Shown one piece after another: positions 2,627 to 12,408 of a stretch of 64,000 nucleotides of DNA (positions are counted from its first letter, which is position 1; each line of letters begins with the position of its first letter). Source of the DNA: Patescibacteria group bacterium (lineage in GTDB: Bacteria > Patescibacteriota > UBA1384 > 2-12-FULL-50-11); assembly GCA_038058635.1 (NCBI GenBank), contig JBBUAP010000001.1:384771-448770 (forward strand). The letters are read 5' to 3'. The notes beneath the pieces were generated by a model. The model did no database searches, was not told the origin of the DNA, and saw only the letters and a list, made by a program, of their open reading frames with translations. A program made the translations under genes and the position numbers.

Positions 2627-3383
2627 CAGCGGTTAGCAAGTTTTCGAATAAAAAACTGACTGTTAGGGGGCCGATCGCCCCTTTGGTGGGGGTAATCTTT
2701 TTGACTAGGGGTTCGATAGTTTTAACATCAACATCCAGGCCAGAGCCATCAACCACAACCATTTCCTGATGGACCATTTCTGGAGCAACTAAACCACGAA
2801 CGCCGGTGGCGGAGATTAGTAGATCGTGCTGACGGATATTTTCGGCCTGGGACTTGGCCTGCTTGGCGATAACAGTCAAAGGCCAATTGTTGGCCGCGAA
2901 AACCTTTGCCAGCGGTCCGCCGACCAACTTGCCCATACCCAAAACTACGGTTTTCAAGTCTTTTATCGCAATCTGGTGATATGACAATAAAGCCATAATG
3001 CTACTGGGGGTTGGCGAGTCGTACGGCGAGTTGCCGCTTAAATTGTCGATGTCTTTGATGGGGTTCACTTTCTGGATTAATGCCTCGGTATCTAATGATT
3101 TTGGTAGGGGCAGTTGAAGAACAATGCCGTCAATGTCTTGGCGTCGGTTGAGGCCATCGAGCATCGATTCTAATTGTTGTTGGCTGGCGGTGGGGAAATG
3201 GTGCAAGAAAAAATGACAATCCAACTTTTTGGCCATCGCTTGTTTGGCCCGGATATAGGTGGCGGTCTGCTTGTCTTCCCCCACCCAAACTAAAGCTAAG
3301 CCAGGGGAAGTTGATAGTTTTTGACGACGAGCGACTAGCTCGACAAGCCGCTGACTAAGAAGCGCCTTGGCTATCAGTTGCAT
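2610..3383 (-). CDS. folD: bifunctional methylenetetrahydrofolate dehydrogenase/cyclohydrolase
   Basis: 257 aa with 'PGLALVWVGEDKQTATYIRAK' and 'IDGIVLQLPLP', a typical FolD layout. Confidence 0.9.
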   Translation of the reverse strand: MQLIAKALLSQRLVELVARRQKLSTSPGLALVWVGEDKQTATYIRAKQAMAKKLDCHFFLHHFPTASQQQLESMLDGLNRRQDIDGIVLQLPLPKSLDTEALIQKVNPIKDIDNLSGNSPYDSPTPSSIMALLSYHQIAIKDLKTVVLGMGKLVGGPLAKVFAANNWPLTVIAKQAKSQAENIRQHDLLISATGVRGLVAPEMVHQEMVVVDGSGLDVDVKTIEPLVKKITPTKGAIGPLTVSFLFENLLTAAIRKS

Positions 3384-3389
3384 TACGGG

Positions 3390-4046
3390 TTAGGGGGCGA
3401 CGGGCGTCGGCGTCGCTTTGGCCGCGTCGATGAGTTTCTGCCAAGTTTCGGCAGTTTGGACACCGGTGAACTTAACCTTATTGAGATAGAAGGTCGGCGT
3501 ACTATCGACTTTCAAGGCCAAGCCGTAATCACGGTCTGTTTCGACCGTCTTCTTTGTTTCTGAACTGGCGTAATCTTTTTCAAATTGGTCGATGTTCAAA
3601 TCAAGTTCTTTGGCGTAGTTGATATAGGTATTGAGCGGGTCGTCGAGGTCCTCCCAAGATTTTTGGTTAGCGTAAAGCAAATCGAGCATCGGCCAGAATT
3701 TACTCTGCTTCCCGGCCGCTTCAGCCGCCAGCGACCCATTCATCCCGTTTTGGTGATTGGGTAAGGGAAAGTGACGGAAAATAATTTGAACCGAATCGCC
3801 GTTATTGGCTTGAGCTTTCTCGAAATCAACGGCGGCCATCGCGCAAGCCGGGCACTGGAAATCACCAAATTCGACTATTTTAACGACTGCGCTATCCGGA
3901 CCGAGTTTATGGCCGACGGTTTCGTCGAGCTGATCGGCAGTGACAGTTGTTTTGGTTGAACTGTCACTGGAAAAAATGACGATGCCGCCAATTACTAAGA
4001 CGGCCGCCGCCACCACACCCAAGAAAAATTTTGAATCACCTGACAT
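3390..4046 (-). CDS. DsbA-family thiol:disulfide oxidoreductase (membrane-anchored thioredoxin fold)
   Basis: 218 aa with an N-terminal TM segment and a CxxC active site 'FQCPACA'. It lies directly downstream of a VKOR gene. Confidence 0.8.
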   Translation of the reverse strand: MSGDSKFFLGVVAAAVLVIGGIVIFSSDSSTKTTVTADQLDETVGHKLGPDSAVVKIVEFGDFQCPACAMAAVDFEKAQANNGDSVQIIFRHFPLPNHQNGMNGSLAAEAAGKQSKFWPMLDLLYANQKSWEDLDDPLNTYINYAKELDLNIDQFEKDYASSETKKTVETDRDYGLALKVDSTPTFYLNKVKFTGVQTAETWQKLIDAAKATPTPVAP

Positions 4047-4445
4047 TTACTTCTTCTTTTTAAAGAAAATTAAGCCATTAATCAAGACCACTAGCCCTAA
4101 AGATACCAGACACCAAGTGCAGTAAGCGTGGATTTGGTATTTTTCGAGGTAGAGTAGATACAAGCTGAAGGCTAAACCACCAATTGCCCAAATTCGTAAC
4201 GGTAGTTCAGCCCAGATTCGTTTGAAGTAGACTAGCCAGGTAAGGATAAGGGCCGCCAAATACCAAAAGATGCCCATTCCAGCGACCGGTAAGCCAAATA
4301 TTTTGGCGTACTGGCTCGAGAGAACGATTTCGCAGCCACCACCGATTGAGCAGATAACCGACGACGGGTCAAATGTTTTCCAGAACAGATAGCCCGAAAC
4401 CAGGATTCCGGCGACAATGAAAATAACTAGCAGCCTTTGTTTCAC
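4047..4445 (-). CDS. vitamin K epoxide reductase (VKOR) family membrane protein
   Basis: 132 aa with about 4 TM segments. It has a loop cysteine pair 'CSIGGGC' and the redox motif 'CTWC'. The start codon is GTG. Confidence 0.8.
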   Translation of the reverse strand: MKQRLLVIFIVAGILVSGYLFWKTFDPSSVICSIGGGCEIVLSSQYAKIFGLPVAGMGIFWYLAALILTWLVYFKRIWAELPLRIWAIGGLAFSLYLLYLEKYQIHAYCTWCLVSLGLVVLINGLIFFKKKK

Positions 4446-4500
4446 CCAATTAGTTTACCAGAGCTTGCCAACGGAAACAAAATCCGGCAGATTAGTCCTG

Positions 4501-5172
4501 ATGAGACTCAACAAGTATCTCGCTGTGGCTGGTGTGGCTTCACGCCGGAGTGCCGATGAGATGATTAAACTCGGCCAGGTTAAGATTAACGGTAAAGTTG
4601 TCAAAGAGATGGGGGTCAAGGTGGATGTTGAAAAGGATGTCATCACGGTTGATGGCAAAAAAGTTCAACTCGAGCCGAACATTGTCACCTATTTACTCAA
4701 CAAACCCCGTGGCGTCATCAGTACCGCCGACGACCCCGAGCATCGAAAAACTGTCCTAGATCTGGTGCCAAAATCACCACGGGTTTTTCCCTGTGGTCGA
4801 CTCGACGAAAATACCATGGGGTTAGTAATTCTGACTAACGACGGTAATCTCTGCTACCAGCTGACGCACCCCAAGTTTGAACATCAGAAAGAATACATTG
4901 TCCACGGTCGCTCAAAAACCCCTGAAGCGGCGCTGGAAATTATTCGTCGCGGTGTTCGATTGGCAGACGGGCCAATCAAGGTTGATGCGCTCGAAGTTAT
5001 TCGAATTAGTCACCAAAAAGTTGAATTCAAAGTCACAATCCACGAAGGCCGCAATCATCTTGTTCGCCGACTTTGTGCGGCAGTTGCCATCGAGATTGAC
5101 GGCCTGACCCGTGTTCGTGTCGGTGATTACGAACTCGGCGATATTGAGCCAGGAAAGTACAAGCAGGTGTAG
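4501..5172 (+). CDS. pseudouridine synthase, RsuA/RluB family (S4 domain + catalytic domain)
   Basis: S4 motif 'MRLNKYLAVAGVASRRSADEMIKLGQVKINGKVV' and catalytic 'GRLDENTMGLVILTNDG'. I chose the internal ATG at 4501 because the track start at 4417 overlaps the VKOR gene. Confidence 0.85.
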   Translation: MRLNKYLAVAGVASRRSADEMIKLGQVKINGKVVKEMGVKVDVEKDVITVDGKKVQLEPNIVTYLLNKPRGVISTADDPEHRKTVLDLVPKSPRVFPCGRLDENTMGLVILTNDGNLCYQLTHPKFEHQKEYIVHGRSKTPEAALEIIRRGVRLADGPIKVDALEVIRISHQKVEFKVTIHEGRNHLVRRLCAAVAIEIDGLTRVRVGDYELGDIEPGKYKQV

Positions 5173-5178
5173 TTCTGC

Positions 5179-5913
5179 CTATTCCTCAACGAGATTAATA
5201 GTTCTCTGAATGTCTCGAAGCCCTTCCCATCGCAAAATTGTGGATTTCAATTTTGGATCGATAGTACTAATAAAACCCCTAACCAAACCTTGAATGCGAT
5301 ACTGCAAGTCAGTGCTCTTCGGTACGCTAATTTGGACGGTTCCATAGTAAAGCGTATTCTTCTTATAATTCTTGCTTTCCGGTTTGATGTATGACTTGCC
5401 GAAATTCTTCGCGGGGATTCCAGTTAAGTCGGACCAGAATGCTATCAAATCTTTTTCATCTTGCTGACTATATATGTTCAACCAGGCCTTTATGCTGGAA
5501 GTCTCAATTCCGAAGACACGCCTTAGCCAATAAACCATAAATAGTATCAATGCCGGATCTGAGTTTGTTACTCGAGTTGCTCCTTTTTTAGTTCCCTCGG
5601 CCCAGTAGATGGCCGCTCCAAGCAACTTTACGGTTTCGTCGTTCAGAGATGTAGATACCTCATTCTGGGCGGAATCCATTATCTGCGAGATCTCCTCCTG
5701 TCGTCTGAGGTGGTGGCTACGCGATCCCAAATTTAGTATCGCTACCTGTTTGGTATAAAGTCTCTGTTTATGCTCTGGGGATAACAACACATTCTTCAGC
5801 CAAGAGCTGAGAGTACTTTTTGAAACATTAATTTCTTGCTGTATTTCTCGGTAACTCAACCCCTTCATCCTTAGCTTGATGGCCTCATCTTTCAACTGCG
5901 ACTTCGCTATCAT
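5179..5913 (-). CDS. HTH-domain protein with possible LAGLIDADG-like homing-endonuclease body
   Basis: 244 aa. The N-terminus has a resolvase-type HTH 'GLSYREIQQEINVSKSTLSSWL'. The central 'LLGAAIYWAEGTKKG...VTNSDP' resembles a LAGLIDADG-type motif, judged from memory only. It sits next to tRNA-Lys and looks lower in GC by eye. Confidence 0.4.
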   Translation of the reverse strand: MIAKSQLKDEAIKLRMKGLSYREIQQEINVSKSTLSSWLKNVLLSPEHKQRLYTKQVAILNLGSRSHHLRRQEEISQIMDSAQNEVSTSLNDETVKLLGAAIYWAEGTKKGATRVTNSDPALILFMVYWLRRVFGIETSSIKAWLNIYSQQDEKDLIAFWSDLTGIPAKNFGKSYIKPESKNYKKNTLYYGTVQISVPKSTDLQYRIQGLVRGFISTIDPKLKSTILRWEGLRDIQRTINLVEE

Positions 5914-6124: not shown

Positions 6125-6763
6125 ATGGATCTGTTTGGCGGAGGCCTTGAAGATACTCTAGTGAAAATCGGCCTATTAGGAGCGTATTTCATCCTTTTTG
6201 CTGAGTCTGGATTATTGATTGGGTTTTTCTTACCCGGCGATAGCTTACTTTTCACGGCTGGGTTACTGGCTTCAAGAGGTTATTTTAGCATTTGGGCGCT
6301 GGTTATTGGCGGTGCCATCGCGGCGATTATTGGCAATCAAGTTGGCTACCATTTCGGTCGACGCTTTGGCCCGAAAATTTTTAACAAAGAAGAATCGTTC
6401 CTTTTCCATAAAGACCACATTATTCGGGCAGAAAAGTTTTACGAGAAGTATGGCGGCGTGGCCCTTATAATTTCCCGTTTTACGCCGATTATCCGTACCT
6501 TCGTCCCGATTCTTGCCGGAGTAGGCAAAATGAATTACCGAAGATTCTTGGTCTATAACATCATCGGCGGAATTCTCTGGGTTTTCAGCGTTAGTTTTGC
6601 GGGTTTCTTTTTAGGTAAGATTGTACCTGATATTGACCGCTATATTCTGCCGATTATCGTCGTTATAGTAATTTTGTCAGCAATAACACCGACCTGGGGC
6701 TATCTTCAACACCGTAAGAATCGTAACTCTAACGCCCGGGCAAAATCCGACCAAGCTCGTTGA
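6125..6763 (+). CDS. DedA/SNARE-associated family membrane protein
   Basis: 212 aa, polytopic, with 'ISRFTPIIRTFVPILAGVGKMNYRRFLVYNIIGG'. Confidence 0.85.
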   Translation: MDLFGGGLEDTLVKIGLLGAYFILFAESGLLIGFFLPGDSLLFTAGLLASRGYFSIWALVIGGAIAAIIGNQVGYHFGRRFGPKIFNKEESFLFHKDHIIRAEKFYEKYGGVALIISRFTPIIRTFVPILAGVGKMNYRRFLVYNIIGGILWVFSVSFAGFFLGKIVPDIDRYILPIIVVIVILSAITPTWGYLQHRKNRNSNARAKSDQAR

Positions 6764-11642: not shown

Positions 11643-11669
11643 GAAAAGAGCCCTCCTTTCGGAGGGCCT
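11643..11669 (-). terminator. intrinsic terminator of rnpB
   Basis: The minus strand reads GGCCCTCC GAAA GGAGGGCT followed by CTTTTCG, immediately 3' of the P1 3' strand. Confidence 0.6.
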
Positions 11670-11670
11670 T

Positions 11671-12376
11671 TTCGGAAGTCTGTAAGCCGGGTTCTGTTTT
11701 AAACGATCATCTGTCTAAGCGTTGAGACCAATATTCAATTGCGAGACCGCAATGGAGCTCGTTGTTCCTTTTGGGAACTTCAAACTTAGATTAAATATCG
11801 GCCCACTCAACTTGCACCACGCTGGGTTTAGCTACTCGCCTTATTACTAAGGACGATTGTGCGCTCTTACCGCACTCTTTTCACCTTTGCCTGTTCCGAT
11901 TCAGTTAGGAAGGGGTGTCACACCTGAGCGCGACACCCATGGTCTATGGACTGCGGGATACTCCGCAGTCGAAGTGGCCGTACTCAGTACGGGCCACTAT
12001 AGAGAGACGATGATTGGTCTTCGACCAGAAGCAGATTCGCCCAATACACGGAGTTTGGACATTTCGATTTTCGCTTCCGACTCTTCTCCTAGTGTCCAAC
12101 CCCTTTCAACGTCCCTGGTAATGATGGTGACGATTTCGGATGCCTGGATTTCGTCGGTCGCTTCAAATCCAAACCGTGCGACGACTCCTCCACGCAGCCT
12201 CATGAAAAGCTCATAATTCATACCCATCTTCTTTCCTCCTAACTGAACCGGACATTGGCTGTTTTGTTTCTGTGCCACTTTCCCTTAGATTGCTCTAGCC
12301 TGCCGTTAGCAGGAGCGCGTCTCTATGGTGCCCGGACTTTCCTCACATGTTAATGCGCGATCGTTTCGACTTCGGG
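11671..12376 (-). ncRNA. rnpB: RNase P RNA, bacterial type A, with a giant P12 expansion
   Basis: Minus-strand motifs are GAGGAAAGTCCGGGC (12344-12330), CACAGAAACAAAACAGCC, AAAGGTGAAAAGAGTGCGGTAAGAGCGCAC (ending 11859) and ACAGAACCCGGCTTAC (11697-11682). P2 pairs AAACGATC (12366-12359) with GATCGTTT (11708-11701). P1 pairs GAAGTC with GACTTC. A promoter and a terminator flank the gene. Confidence 0.85.
11997..12227 (-). CDS. 76-codon ORF inside the rnpB P12 expansion (hypothetical; may not be translated)
   Basis: TAGGAGGAAAGAAG-ATG puts an SD 7 nt upstream of the start. The product is MGMNYELFMRLRGGVVARFGFEATDEIQASEIVTIITRDVERGWTLGEESEAKIEMSKLRVLGESASGRRPIIVSL. I recognise no domain, and the SD is base-paired in the P12 stem. 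Confidence 0.3.
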   Translation of the reverse strand: MGMNYELFMRLRGGVVARFGFEATDEIQASEIVTIITRDVERGWTLGEESEAKIEMSKLRVLGESASGRRPIIVSL

Positions 12377-12379
12377 GAA

Positions 12380-12408
12380 AATATAACAAAAATAAGGTAA
12401 AAAGTCAA
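12380..12408 (-). promoter_or_regulatory. sigma70-type promoter of rnpB
   Basis: The minus strand reads TTGACT-N17-TATATT, then about 7 nt to the P1 5' strand (CCCCGAAGTC). It overlaps the rnhB stop codon. Confidence 0.55.

Follow-up and report, generated by a model that had tools for sequence, protein, structure and literature searches.

A candidate small-protein cassette in the P12 helix of RNase P RNA genes from a clade of candidate phyla radiation bacteria

RNase P RNA, the product of rnpB, is a textbook non-coding RNA, and a clade in which it carries a selected open reading frame (ORF) behind a Shine-Dalgarno sequence (SD) would extend the dual-function RNAs to an essential ribozyme. The candidate case presented here comes from a 64-kb window (the whole stretch of DNA that was analysed, to which all coordinates refer) of a groundwater bacterium of the candidate phyla radiation (CPR; Patescibacteria, GCA_038058635.1, contig JBBUAP010000001.1); related loci are designated by L and a number. 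In the window rnpB, a 358-nt insertion placed at the tip of helix P12 contains an ORF of 76 codons. Together with what is found in the relatives, this makes it fairly probable that the rnpB genes of this CPR clade have a dual function, as ribozyme and as mRNA, and hold a small-protein cassette that can be swapped.

The window gene and its P12 cassette

Judged by homology, the window gene is a type-A RNase P RNA with the established non-coding function. A cmscan search of the window gave one match to RF00010 (gathering score 100 bits), at 11671-12373 on the minus strand (155.6 bits, E 3e-48, model positions 1-367), in which both flanks align as one molecule and about 345 nt between the P12 strands are left unaligned. 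The P4 strands and the core follow in the correct order, GAGGAAAGUCCGGGC ... ACAGAACCCGGCUUA, with high posterior probability, and they are kept in all relatives; a single match over both flanks was also obtained in 11 related loci. An earlier, sequence-only reading of this DNA had claimed that a single type-A RNase P RNA gene contains a large insertion in P12 and had proposed this covariance model as a check, and the single match over both flanks bears the claim out. The features of the locus are the following.

11671-12373, minus strand: rnpB, encoding a type-A RNase P RNA of about 703 nt with its P12 cassette (RF00010, 155.6 bits)
11895-12252, minus strand: P12 expansion, the cassette of closing stem, ORF and hairpins (insert unaligned by cmscan; fold z = -7.15)
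12235-12252, minus strand: 5' strand of the closing stem, TCCGGTTCAGTTAGGAGG, containing the SD AGGAGG (12240-12235); identical or compensated in 10 other lineages
11895-11913, minus strand: 3' strand of the closing stem, CCTTCCTAACTGAATCGGA, the anti-SD partner (duplex energy -26.9 kcal/mol)
11997-12227, minus strand: 76-codon ORF (P0001) with TAG stop (11999-11997), supported by coding selection and codon usage
11973-11998, minus strand: hairpin 1, AGTGGCCCGTAC/GTACGGCCACT, lineage-specific, overlapping the stop codon; absent from L001
11949-11970, minus strand: hairpin 2, GACTGCGG/CCGCAGTC, lineage-specific; absent from L001
11913-11938, minus strand: terminal hairpin, abutting the 3' strand of the stem without a spacer; found in each of the 11 lineages, with five sequence types whose arms are compensated
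12380-12408, minus strand: sigma-70-like promoter TTGACT-N17-TATATT (10 of 12 consensus matches)
11649-11668, minus strand: intrinsic-terminator-like GC hairpin and T tract at the rnpB 3' end (consensus match)

The closing stem pairs TCCGGTTCAGTTAGGAGG (12252-12235) with CCTTCCTAACTGAATCGGA (11913-11895) over 18 bp, two of them G:U pairs, and AGGAGG (12240-12235) is followed after seven bases by an ATG at 12227. Folding of the insert (11895-12252), another of the checks that had been proposed, gives -157.6 kcal/mol and z = -7.15 against shuffles. The size of the expansion, its stem and the AGGAGG-N7-ATG opening of the ORF had all been described correctly. The three hairpins said to follow the ORF are all present, and only the last of them is conserved in relatives. 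The promoter and terminator that had been assigned to the gene are in place at the level of consensus matches; TTGACT-N17-TATATT is the sole promoter-like site upstream of the cassette ORF, and no promoter-like site was found inside the P12 insert. Two other frames were rejected. A GTG start further upstream (12278, giving 93 aa) falls within conserved sequence of the ribozyme, and only some lineages have it in frame. An antisense ORF of 119 codons (11857-12216, plus strand) is probably a shadow of the sense ORF, because its length is not conserved in L001, where it has 61 codons.

By its pattern of differences and its codon usage, the window ORF is a genuine coding sequence under purifying selection. 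A search of 5.8 billion proteins returned, apart from P0001 itself on six contigs, one homologue only, P0002 (74 aa, 77% amino acid identity), which is found in locus L001 and likewise lies within P12 of an RF00010 match (160.8 bits). The two ORFs share 77% of their nucleotides, and the 52 differences are distributed 11/12/29 over codon positions 1/2/3, with 23 codons having synonymous changes only and 17 having a replacement. The Nei-Gojobori method gives a nonsynonymous rate (dN) of 0.15 and a synonymous rate (dS) of 0.86, that is a dN/dS of 0.18, and the comparison of synonymous with nonsynonymous change yields a Fisher p of 4.5e-8. A codon-usage log-likelihood ratio trained on the long ORFs of the window amounts to +23.7 bits in frame and to -34 and -41 bits in the other frames; window genes cut to pieces of the same length give 31.5 +/- 10.5 bits. 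When the variable region of the window is shuffled, an SD-anchored ORF of this length appears in 0.9% of the shuffles. It is the homologue at the same site, the excess of differences at third positions, the low dN/dS and the gene-like codon usage that argue for a real gene, and the same selection and host-like codon usage support the coding ORF put forward earlier.

Homologues beyond L001 were looked for widely. A HMMER scan of 1.84 billion cluster representatives gave no further credible homologue of the cassette ORFs (three 800-aa matches with E of about 1e-4 were dismissed as repeat or low-complexity proteins), wider homologue searches brought back nothing beyond the query ORFs and the homologue in L001, and a protein-pattern scan of JGI metagenomes gave nothing. 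The product of the window ORF contains the peptides FGFEATDEIQASEIVTIITR and GWTLGEESEAK. A crude count of SD usage in the window, 12 of 42 long ORFs, is too rough for use.

The neighbours of rnpB are the genes for UvrA, RNase HII, DUF1653, TsaE and TsaB. In L001 (283-1589) rnpB is convergent with the RNase HII gene, and it follows that gene, pointing the same way, in the window and in most relatives; because of this difference in orientation, the rnpB locus is seen to be inverted in L001 relative to the window and most relatives, with the cassette retained. Without the insert, the core of the window rnpB is 94-97% identical to L001, L050 and L051 (94.7% with L001). The window RNase P RNA is without P18 (0 of 24 model positions aligned). 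It also has a lineage-specific insertion of 34 nt in the P15-P17 region (11700-11850, minus strand), which is conserved in L001, L042, L045 and L050.

A conserved frame and its exchangeable ORFs

Relatives were sampled by an 18-mer scan of a genome collection for the J11/12 region, by a 20-mer scan of metagenomes for the 5' strand of the stem, and through homologues of the neighbouring RNase HII, a route that is, unlike the 20-mer scan, independent of the presence of the stem. The sample of the clade amounts to about a dozen lineages. Nearly all close relatives have an rnpB of 684-850 nt, plus one of about 1.26 kb. The P12 cassette, as the sequence-only reading had not noticed, is not peculiar to the window genome, and the comparison of related rnpB loci that it had proposed shows the insert to recur in P12 across the clade. 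The same frame is shared by 11 lineages (the window, L001, L021, L045, L047, L050, L051, L054, L058, L060 and L061; L049 has the same arrangement as L021 and is grouped with it). The ten further lineages are Berkelbacteria/Saccharimonadia-like CPR, and one of them, L058, is a complete genome (CP066697.1) labelled Candidatus Berkelbacteria. In the relatives the frame consists of a 17-bp stem with AGGAGG at its end, an ATG, GTG or TTG start codon 5-12 nt after it, an ORF that occupies 72-96% of the variable region in the frame-bearing lineages, and a GC hairpin that in all of these ends exactly at the start of the 3' strand of the stem. The ORFs of L021/L049, L045, L047, L050, L051, L054, L058 and L060 encode 60, 91, 72, 98, 86, 83, 77 and 119 aa; L046 and L048 have further ORFs, which are truncated. 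In shuffled sequences, an SD-anchored ORF of the observed length occurs in 0.04-0.9% of cases per lineage, and combining nine independent lineages gives a Fisher p of 4.7e-16.

The RNA structure of the frame shows the same signs of maintenance. In L054, L060 and L061 the stem has undergone a compensatory change from U-A to C-G and a switch from G:U to G-C, and five unrelated sequence types of the terminal hairpin exist, each of which has complementary arms. The lineages that share the frame have RNase HII proteins that are only 54-78% identical. The frame of stem, SD and hairpin is by this comparison ancient, having been conserved between lineages this far apart. The sequence-only reading had suggested an insertion that is mobile or similar to an intervening sequence; exchangeability is borne out, with the ORF replaced between flanks that are 90-100% identical, but a sporadic recent invasion of this genome is contradicted by the conservation of the frame over such distances. 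A chimeric assembly was also considered and rejected: the same architecture is present in independent NCBI, ENA, JGI and Logan assemblies, including a complete genome. In deposited genomes, the embedded cassette ORFs appear as ordinary hypothetical proteins, for example HSX42345.1.

One extreme example is L061, where an rnpB of about 1.26 kb (3335-4597) contains three tandem ORFs of 87, 61 and 82 aa, each with its own copy of GGCUCAG(U/C)UAGGAGG in front of it. The 5' strand with the SD is thus present three times and its 3' partner strand once. The three copies could therefore pair with this partner alternatively, and the energies predicted for the duplexes are -28.1, -24.7 and -18.2 kcal/mol. 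In L046 (13948-14075) the contig ends within the cassette ORF, and variation between strains in the slot may have broken the assembly there.

The cassette ORF itself, a point that the sequence-only reading missed, differs in almost every lineage. In all-against-all BLASTP and phmmer comparisons of the cassette ORFs, clear homology was seen only between the window and L001 and between L050 and the first ORF of L061 (32% identity, E 1.8e-9). These pairs depart from the relationships of the hosts. The UvrA C-terminus is 98% identical to that of the window in L050, 96% in L051 and 94% in L001, and RNase HII is 77-78% identical in L050/L051 and 71% in L001; L050 and L051 are nearer to the window than L001 is, and the ORF is common to the window and L001 only. 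Likewise, L050 shares its ORF family with the distant L061 (RNase HII 57%), and L051, which is close to L050 (RNase HII 79%), has an unrelated ORF. Along rnpB, the window shares 90-100% of the core with L050, L051 and L045 but 17-50% of the ORF region, and for L050 and L051 the drop to chance level spans the region from the SD to the terminal hairpin; between the window and L001 identity stays at 67-83% over the ORF region. Because the core is nearly identical and the slot is at chance level even between close relatives, the alignments indicate that the ORF has been replaced and has not merely diverged. Most simply, recombination in the conserved flanks of the ribozyme would have put one allele in the place of another. 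Terminal-hairpin types are common to loci with different ORFs.

Other P12 regions are different. The distant Saccharibacteria loci L020, L031 and L033 have ordinary P12 hairpins. In L042 (6587-7259) and L052 (3454-4137) the P12 region is about 160-185 nt long, without an ORF, AT-rich or made of hairpin repeats, and begins with a CCA(A/G)UGCUUCGCA(U/C)UG hairpin; both loci contain additional insertions in other parts of rnpB. Relatives appear to exchange entire P12 alleles. In L021, a GC hairpin module of about 30 nt with a CUAACG-type loop is found at three peripheral sites of rnpB (5775-5812, 6198-6235 and 6427-6464). Similar modules are present in L047 and L042, and their likeness to the ribozyme's own GCUAACGGC hairpin suggests a duplicated structural module. 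Because of their insertions, the rnpB genes at L021:5731-6502, L047:40-810 and L049:3664-4435 score 92 bits, below the gathering threshold of 100, and default annotation would therefore report these genomes as being without RNase P RNA.

The cassette proteins are soluble, with isoelectric points of 4.2-9.4. Many of them begin with an aromatic beta-strand pattern, and there is a loose common start of a helix, [FV]-[ED]-A-x-[DNS]-x-x-[ED]-A, which is suggestive and not significant. A YhzD-like match (E 0.4) was dismissed as weak, and a match to formiminotransferase (FTCD_N, E 0.002) as being below the curated cut-off. AlphaFold2 gives a poor model for the window protein (predicted local distance difference test, pLDDT, 58.7) and a moderate beta-beta-alpha-beta model for the L058 protein (pLDDT 73.6). 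A role in RNA binding, for which small alpha/beta folds like eL20/LX or HicB/UPF0150 were considered, is only hinted at.

Accessibility of the SD and competing explanations

In models of the folded RNA the SD is sequestered, as the sequence-only reading had proposed: in the full-length RNA of all ten lineages modelled, AGGAGG has a mean unpaired probability of at most 0.011. In the RNA that precedes transcription of the 3' strand, the modelled value is 0.24-0.83, again in 10 of 10 lineages. The mechanism that we favour builds on this difference. From the rnpB promoter, one transcript would serve both as the RNase P ribozyme and as a P12-borne mRNA that encodes a small accessory protein, of 76 aa in the case of the window, within a fixed frame in which the 17-18-bp stem with AGGAGG would be followed by a start codon 5-12 nt further on, the ORF and a GC hairpin stacked on the 3' strand. 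The cassette ORF would be translated, presumably during transcription: ribosomes would load only on the nascent RNA, because the pairing partner of the SD is transcribed about 250-400 nt later. The stem would then close and bury the SD, leaving a ribozyme that is closed to ribosomes, and the mature RNase P RNA would presumably stay in one piece. Protein output would follow the transcription of rnpB and not the large stable pool of the RNA. In several lineages the stop codon is in or next to the terminal hairpin, so a terminating ribosome would sit on the junction. The near-invariant ribozyme flanks would serve as homology arms through which alleles are swapped by recombination, which would be why close relatives carry unrelated ORFs.

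Several points weigh against this mechanism. The accessibility values are equilibrium folds of truncated RNAs and not folding kinetics, and a stem of -27 kcal/mol that covers the SD could just as well keep the ORF silent up to the time of RNA processing. In two close relatives, L042 and L052, P12 is a long allele of another kind with no ORF, and the coding cassette is therefore dispensable for RNase P. Coding selection is measurable in one ORF family only (window/L001), as the second pair for which dN/dS could be computed, L047/L070, has one substitution and is uninformative. For none of the cassette ORFs was there a significant match in Pfam, PHROGs, PADLOC, NCBIfam or PDB sequence profiles, and the structure models of the proteins are of modest confidence.

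The alternative to be taken most seriously is processing of the type known from intervening sequences (IVSs) of rRNA, which we regard as possible though rather unlikely. Here, as the sequence-only reading had conjectured, an RNase III-type enzyme would cut the 17-18-bp stem after transcription and release the ORF RNA with a freed SD and a 3' hairpin, the RNase P RNA would be left as two pieces held together by the rest of the specificity domain, and translation would take place mainly from the fragment. The geometry is that of rRNA IVSs, with a long perfect stem closing an insertion at a helix tip (17-18 bp and -26.9 kcal/mol at the tip of P12), and the SD is essentially inaccessible in the intact RNA. 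The hairpin sits exactly at the junction in all lineages, where it would lengthen the helix, which by coaxial extension could reach about 23-30 bp, and would protect the released 3' end. There is precedent as well: a 428-nt IVS with an ORF is excised by RNase III in Coxiella (PMC4990558), and the rRNA genes of CPR bacteria are rich in insertions, some of which are thought to be RNase III-type IVSs (PMC11270868). However, cleavage of the stem is a conjecture, and a staggered cut within the stem would leave the SD-containing strands paired, so that cleavage alone would not free the SD. The excised IVS RNA of Coxiella is rapidly degraded and its ORF apparently untranslated (PMC4990558), whereas the ORFs here are intact and selected. 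In the 64-kb window a crude motif scan found no RnpA or RNase III motifs, which says nothing about the genome as a whole.

Two further explanations account for less of the data. A selfish homing element, in which the ORF would be a small nuclease or recombination factor that copies the cassette into empty or different rnpB alleles, would fit the fixed insertion site in a highly conserved RNA gene and the distribution of the cassette, which departs from the host phylogeny; insertions in CPR rRNA genes usually have LAGLIDADG or GIY-YIG endonucleases (PMC11270868). It is nevertheless very unlikely, because there is no intron core, no nuclease domain and no relationship among the ORFs. Pfam searches of the cassette ORFs found no LAGLIDADG, GIY-YIG, HNH or reverse-transcriptase domain, and 0 of 15 ORFs have an endonuclease or any other Pfam domain; ORFs of 60-119 aa that are mutually unrelated are a poor fit to one enzyme recognising one invariant site. 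As for an intron, a permissive Rfam scan of the window insert (E up to 10) gave only two chance-level, non-intron matches and thus no known RNA family, Rfam scans of the related loci (E up to 1e-5) gave RNase P RNA and tRNA only, with no group I or II intron core, and viral contigs contained no copy of the cassette stem. That the insert is merely a structural or neutral enlargement of P12 whose ORFs are never translated deserves similarly little credence. Large helix extensions are described for CPR RNase P RNAs in passages of PMC8172020, L042 and L052 show that a long P12 can be without an ORF, and the SD is buried in the folded RNA. What contradicts a purely non-coding expansion is the coding evidence for the ORF and the clade-wide architecture: the third-position bias and dN/dS of 0.18 in the window/L001 pair, codon usage that is host-like in the proper frame only, an SD, a start at 5-12 nt and a region-filling frame in every lineage (p = 4.7e-16), and the three tandem ORFs of L061, each behind its own SD copy.

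If rnpB is indeed a dual-function gene of the kind we favour, the two roles would be separable on one RNA, with the SD open in the nascent form and locked in the mature form, as the models predict. A hypervariable gene slot with ultraconserved flanks would, in very small genomes, be a natural landing pad for gene exchange, and in CPR bacteria that cannot be cultured the P12 slot might serve to flag host interaction or conflict between strains. A more speculative extension, which we hold to be doubtful as a whole, takes the tip of P12 as an integrase-free cassette slot in which CPR lineages swap small-protein genes through the ribozyme arms and express them from the rnpB promoter, the stem limiting each RNA to a pioneer co-transcriptional round of translation. 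The products would be hypervariable RNA-binding proteins (eL20-like, beta-beta-alpha-beta) that act in cis on the new RNase P RNA or in strain-level conflict with phage or host. RNase P would then be a ribonucleoprotein that encodes its own variable subunit.

Comparison with known systems

The cassette touches two known kinds of element, dual-function RNAs and ORF-bearing insertions in stable-RNA genes. What appears to be new is the RNase P ribozyme as the host and the conserved, SD-sequestering frame that holds a hypervariable cassette. Full-text literature searches found no published coding insertion in rnpB, in agreement with the sequence-only reading, which knew of none. Dual-function RNAs include tmRNA, RNAIII with delta-haemolysin, SgrS/SgrT and SR1/SR1P. 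As in these, a single transcript would combine a non-coding job with a small ORF, which is translated there and predicted to be translated for rnpB. Unlike in these, the non-coding part is a ribozyme with a housekeeping role, usually assumed not to be translated, and the ORF is a swappable cassette and not a fixed partner of the RNA function. Indeed, rnpB has been used as the untranslated negative control in Ribo-seq (PMC10117765, PMC10117724).

Unusual RNase P RNAs have been described from CPR before. Passages of Lui et al. 2021 report diverged CPR RNase P RNAs with an extended P15, a missing P12 and sub-threshold scores, and 10 of 35 circular CPR genomes that appeared to be without RNase P RNA at default cut-offs (PMC8172020). 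Large helix extensions and scores under the Rfam threshold are found in both cases; those same passages are silent on coding content or an SD-sequestering stem (PMC8172020). It is possible that rnpB genes of 0.7-1.3 kb, some of them below threshold, contribute to the CPR genomes seemingly 'lacking' RNase P RNA in those passages (PMC8172020). An evolutionary survey from 2026 finds that P12 tips are common sites of expansion, which bind proteins in archaea and eukaryotes (PMC12974513), and the cassette shares with these archaeal and eukaryal expansions the P12 tip as the preferred site.

The rRNA genes of CPR bacteria contain group I and II introns with LAGLIDADG or GIY-YIG endonucleases as well as uncharacterised insertions, and the survey of these insertions makes no mention of RNase P RNA (PMC11270868). 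Here too, stable-RNA genes of the same kind of organisms are loaded with coding insertions at the tips of stem-loops; in contrast, the P12 cassette is without an intron core or endonuclease domain, and its stem/SD/hairpin frame is conserved while the ORF varies. In a similar example, the IVS in helix 45 of the Coxiella burnetii 23S rRNA has an S23p ORF with a degenerate ribosome-binding site (RBS) region, and the ORF is decaying and its protein apparently not made (PMC4990558). In both systems an essential structural RNA has an insertion at the tip of a peripheral helix, with a long closing stem, a small ORF and evidence of horizontal or recombinational spread. The differences are that the insertion is hosted here by the RNase P ribozyme and not by rRNA, and that the cassette ORFs are not S23p (no Pfam or NCBIfam match for any). 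The SD and the spacing to the start are conserved and the ORF is under purifying selection, whereas in Coxiella the ORF lacks a working RBS and decays. The cassette ORF also differs in nearly every lineage, and excision by RNase III, which takes place in Coxiella, is a conjecture for the cassette.

In an integron, one fixed site of expression provides the promoter and takes up a variety of small ORFs, most of them orphans. The P12 cassettes resemble this arrangement in having one promoter-supplying site, diverse orphan ORFs and possible tandem arrays, as in L061. No integrase gene was called beside rnpB and no attC/attI site was identified there, though attC/attI sites were not specifically searched for. 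Unlike integrons, cassette exchange in rnpB presumably relies on ordinary homologous recombination via the ribozyme flanks.

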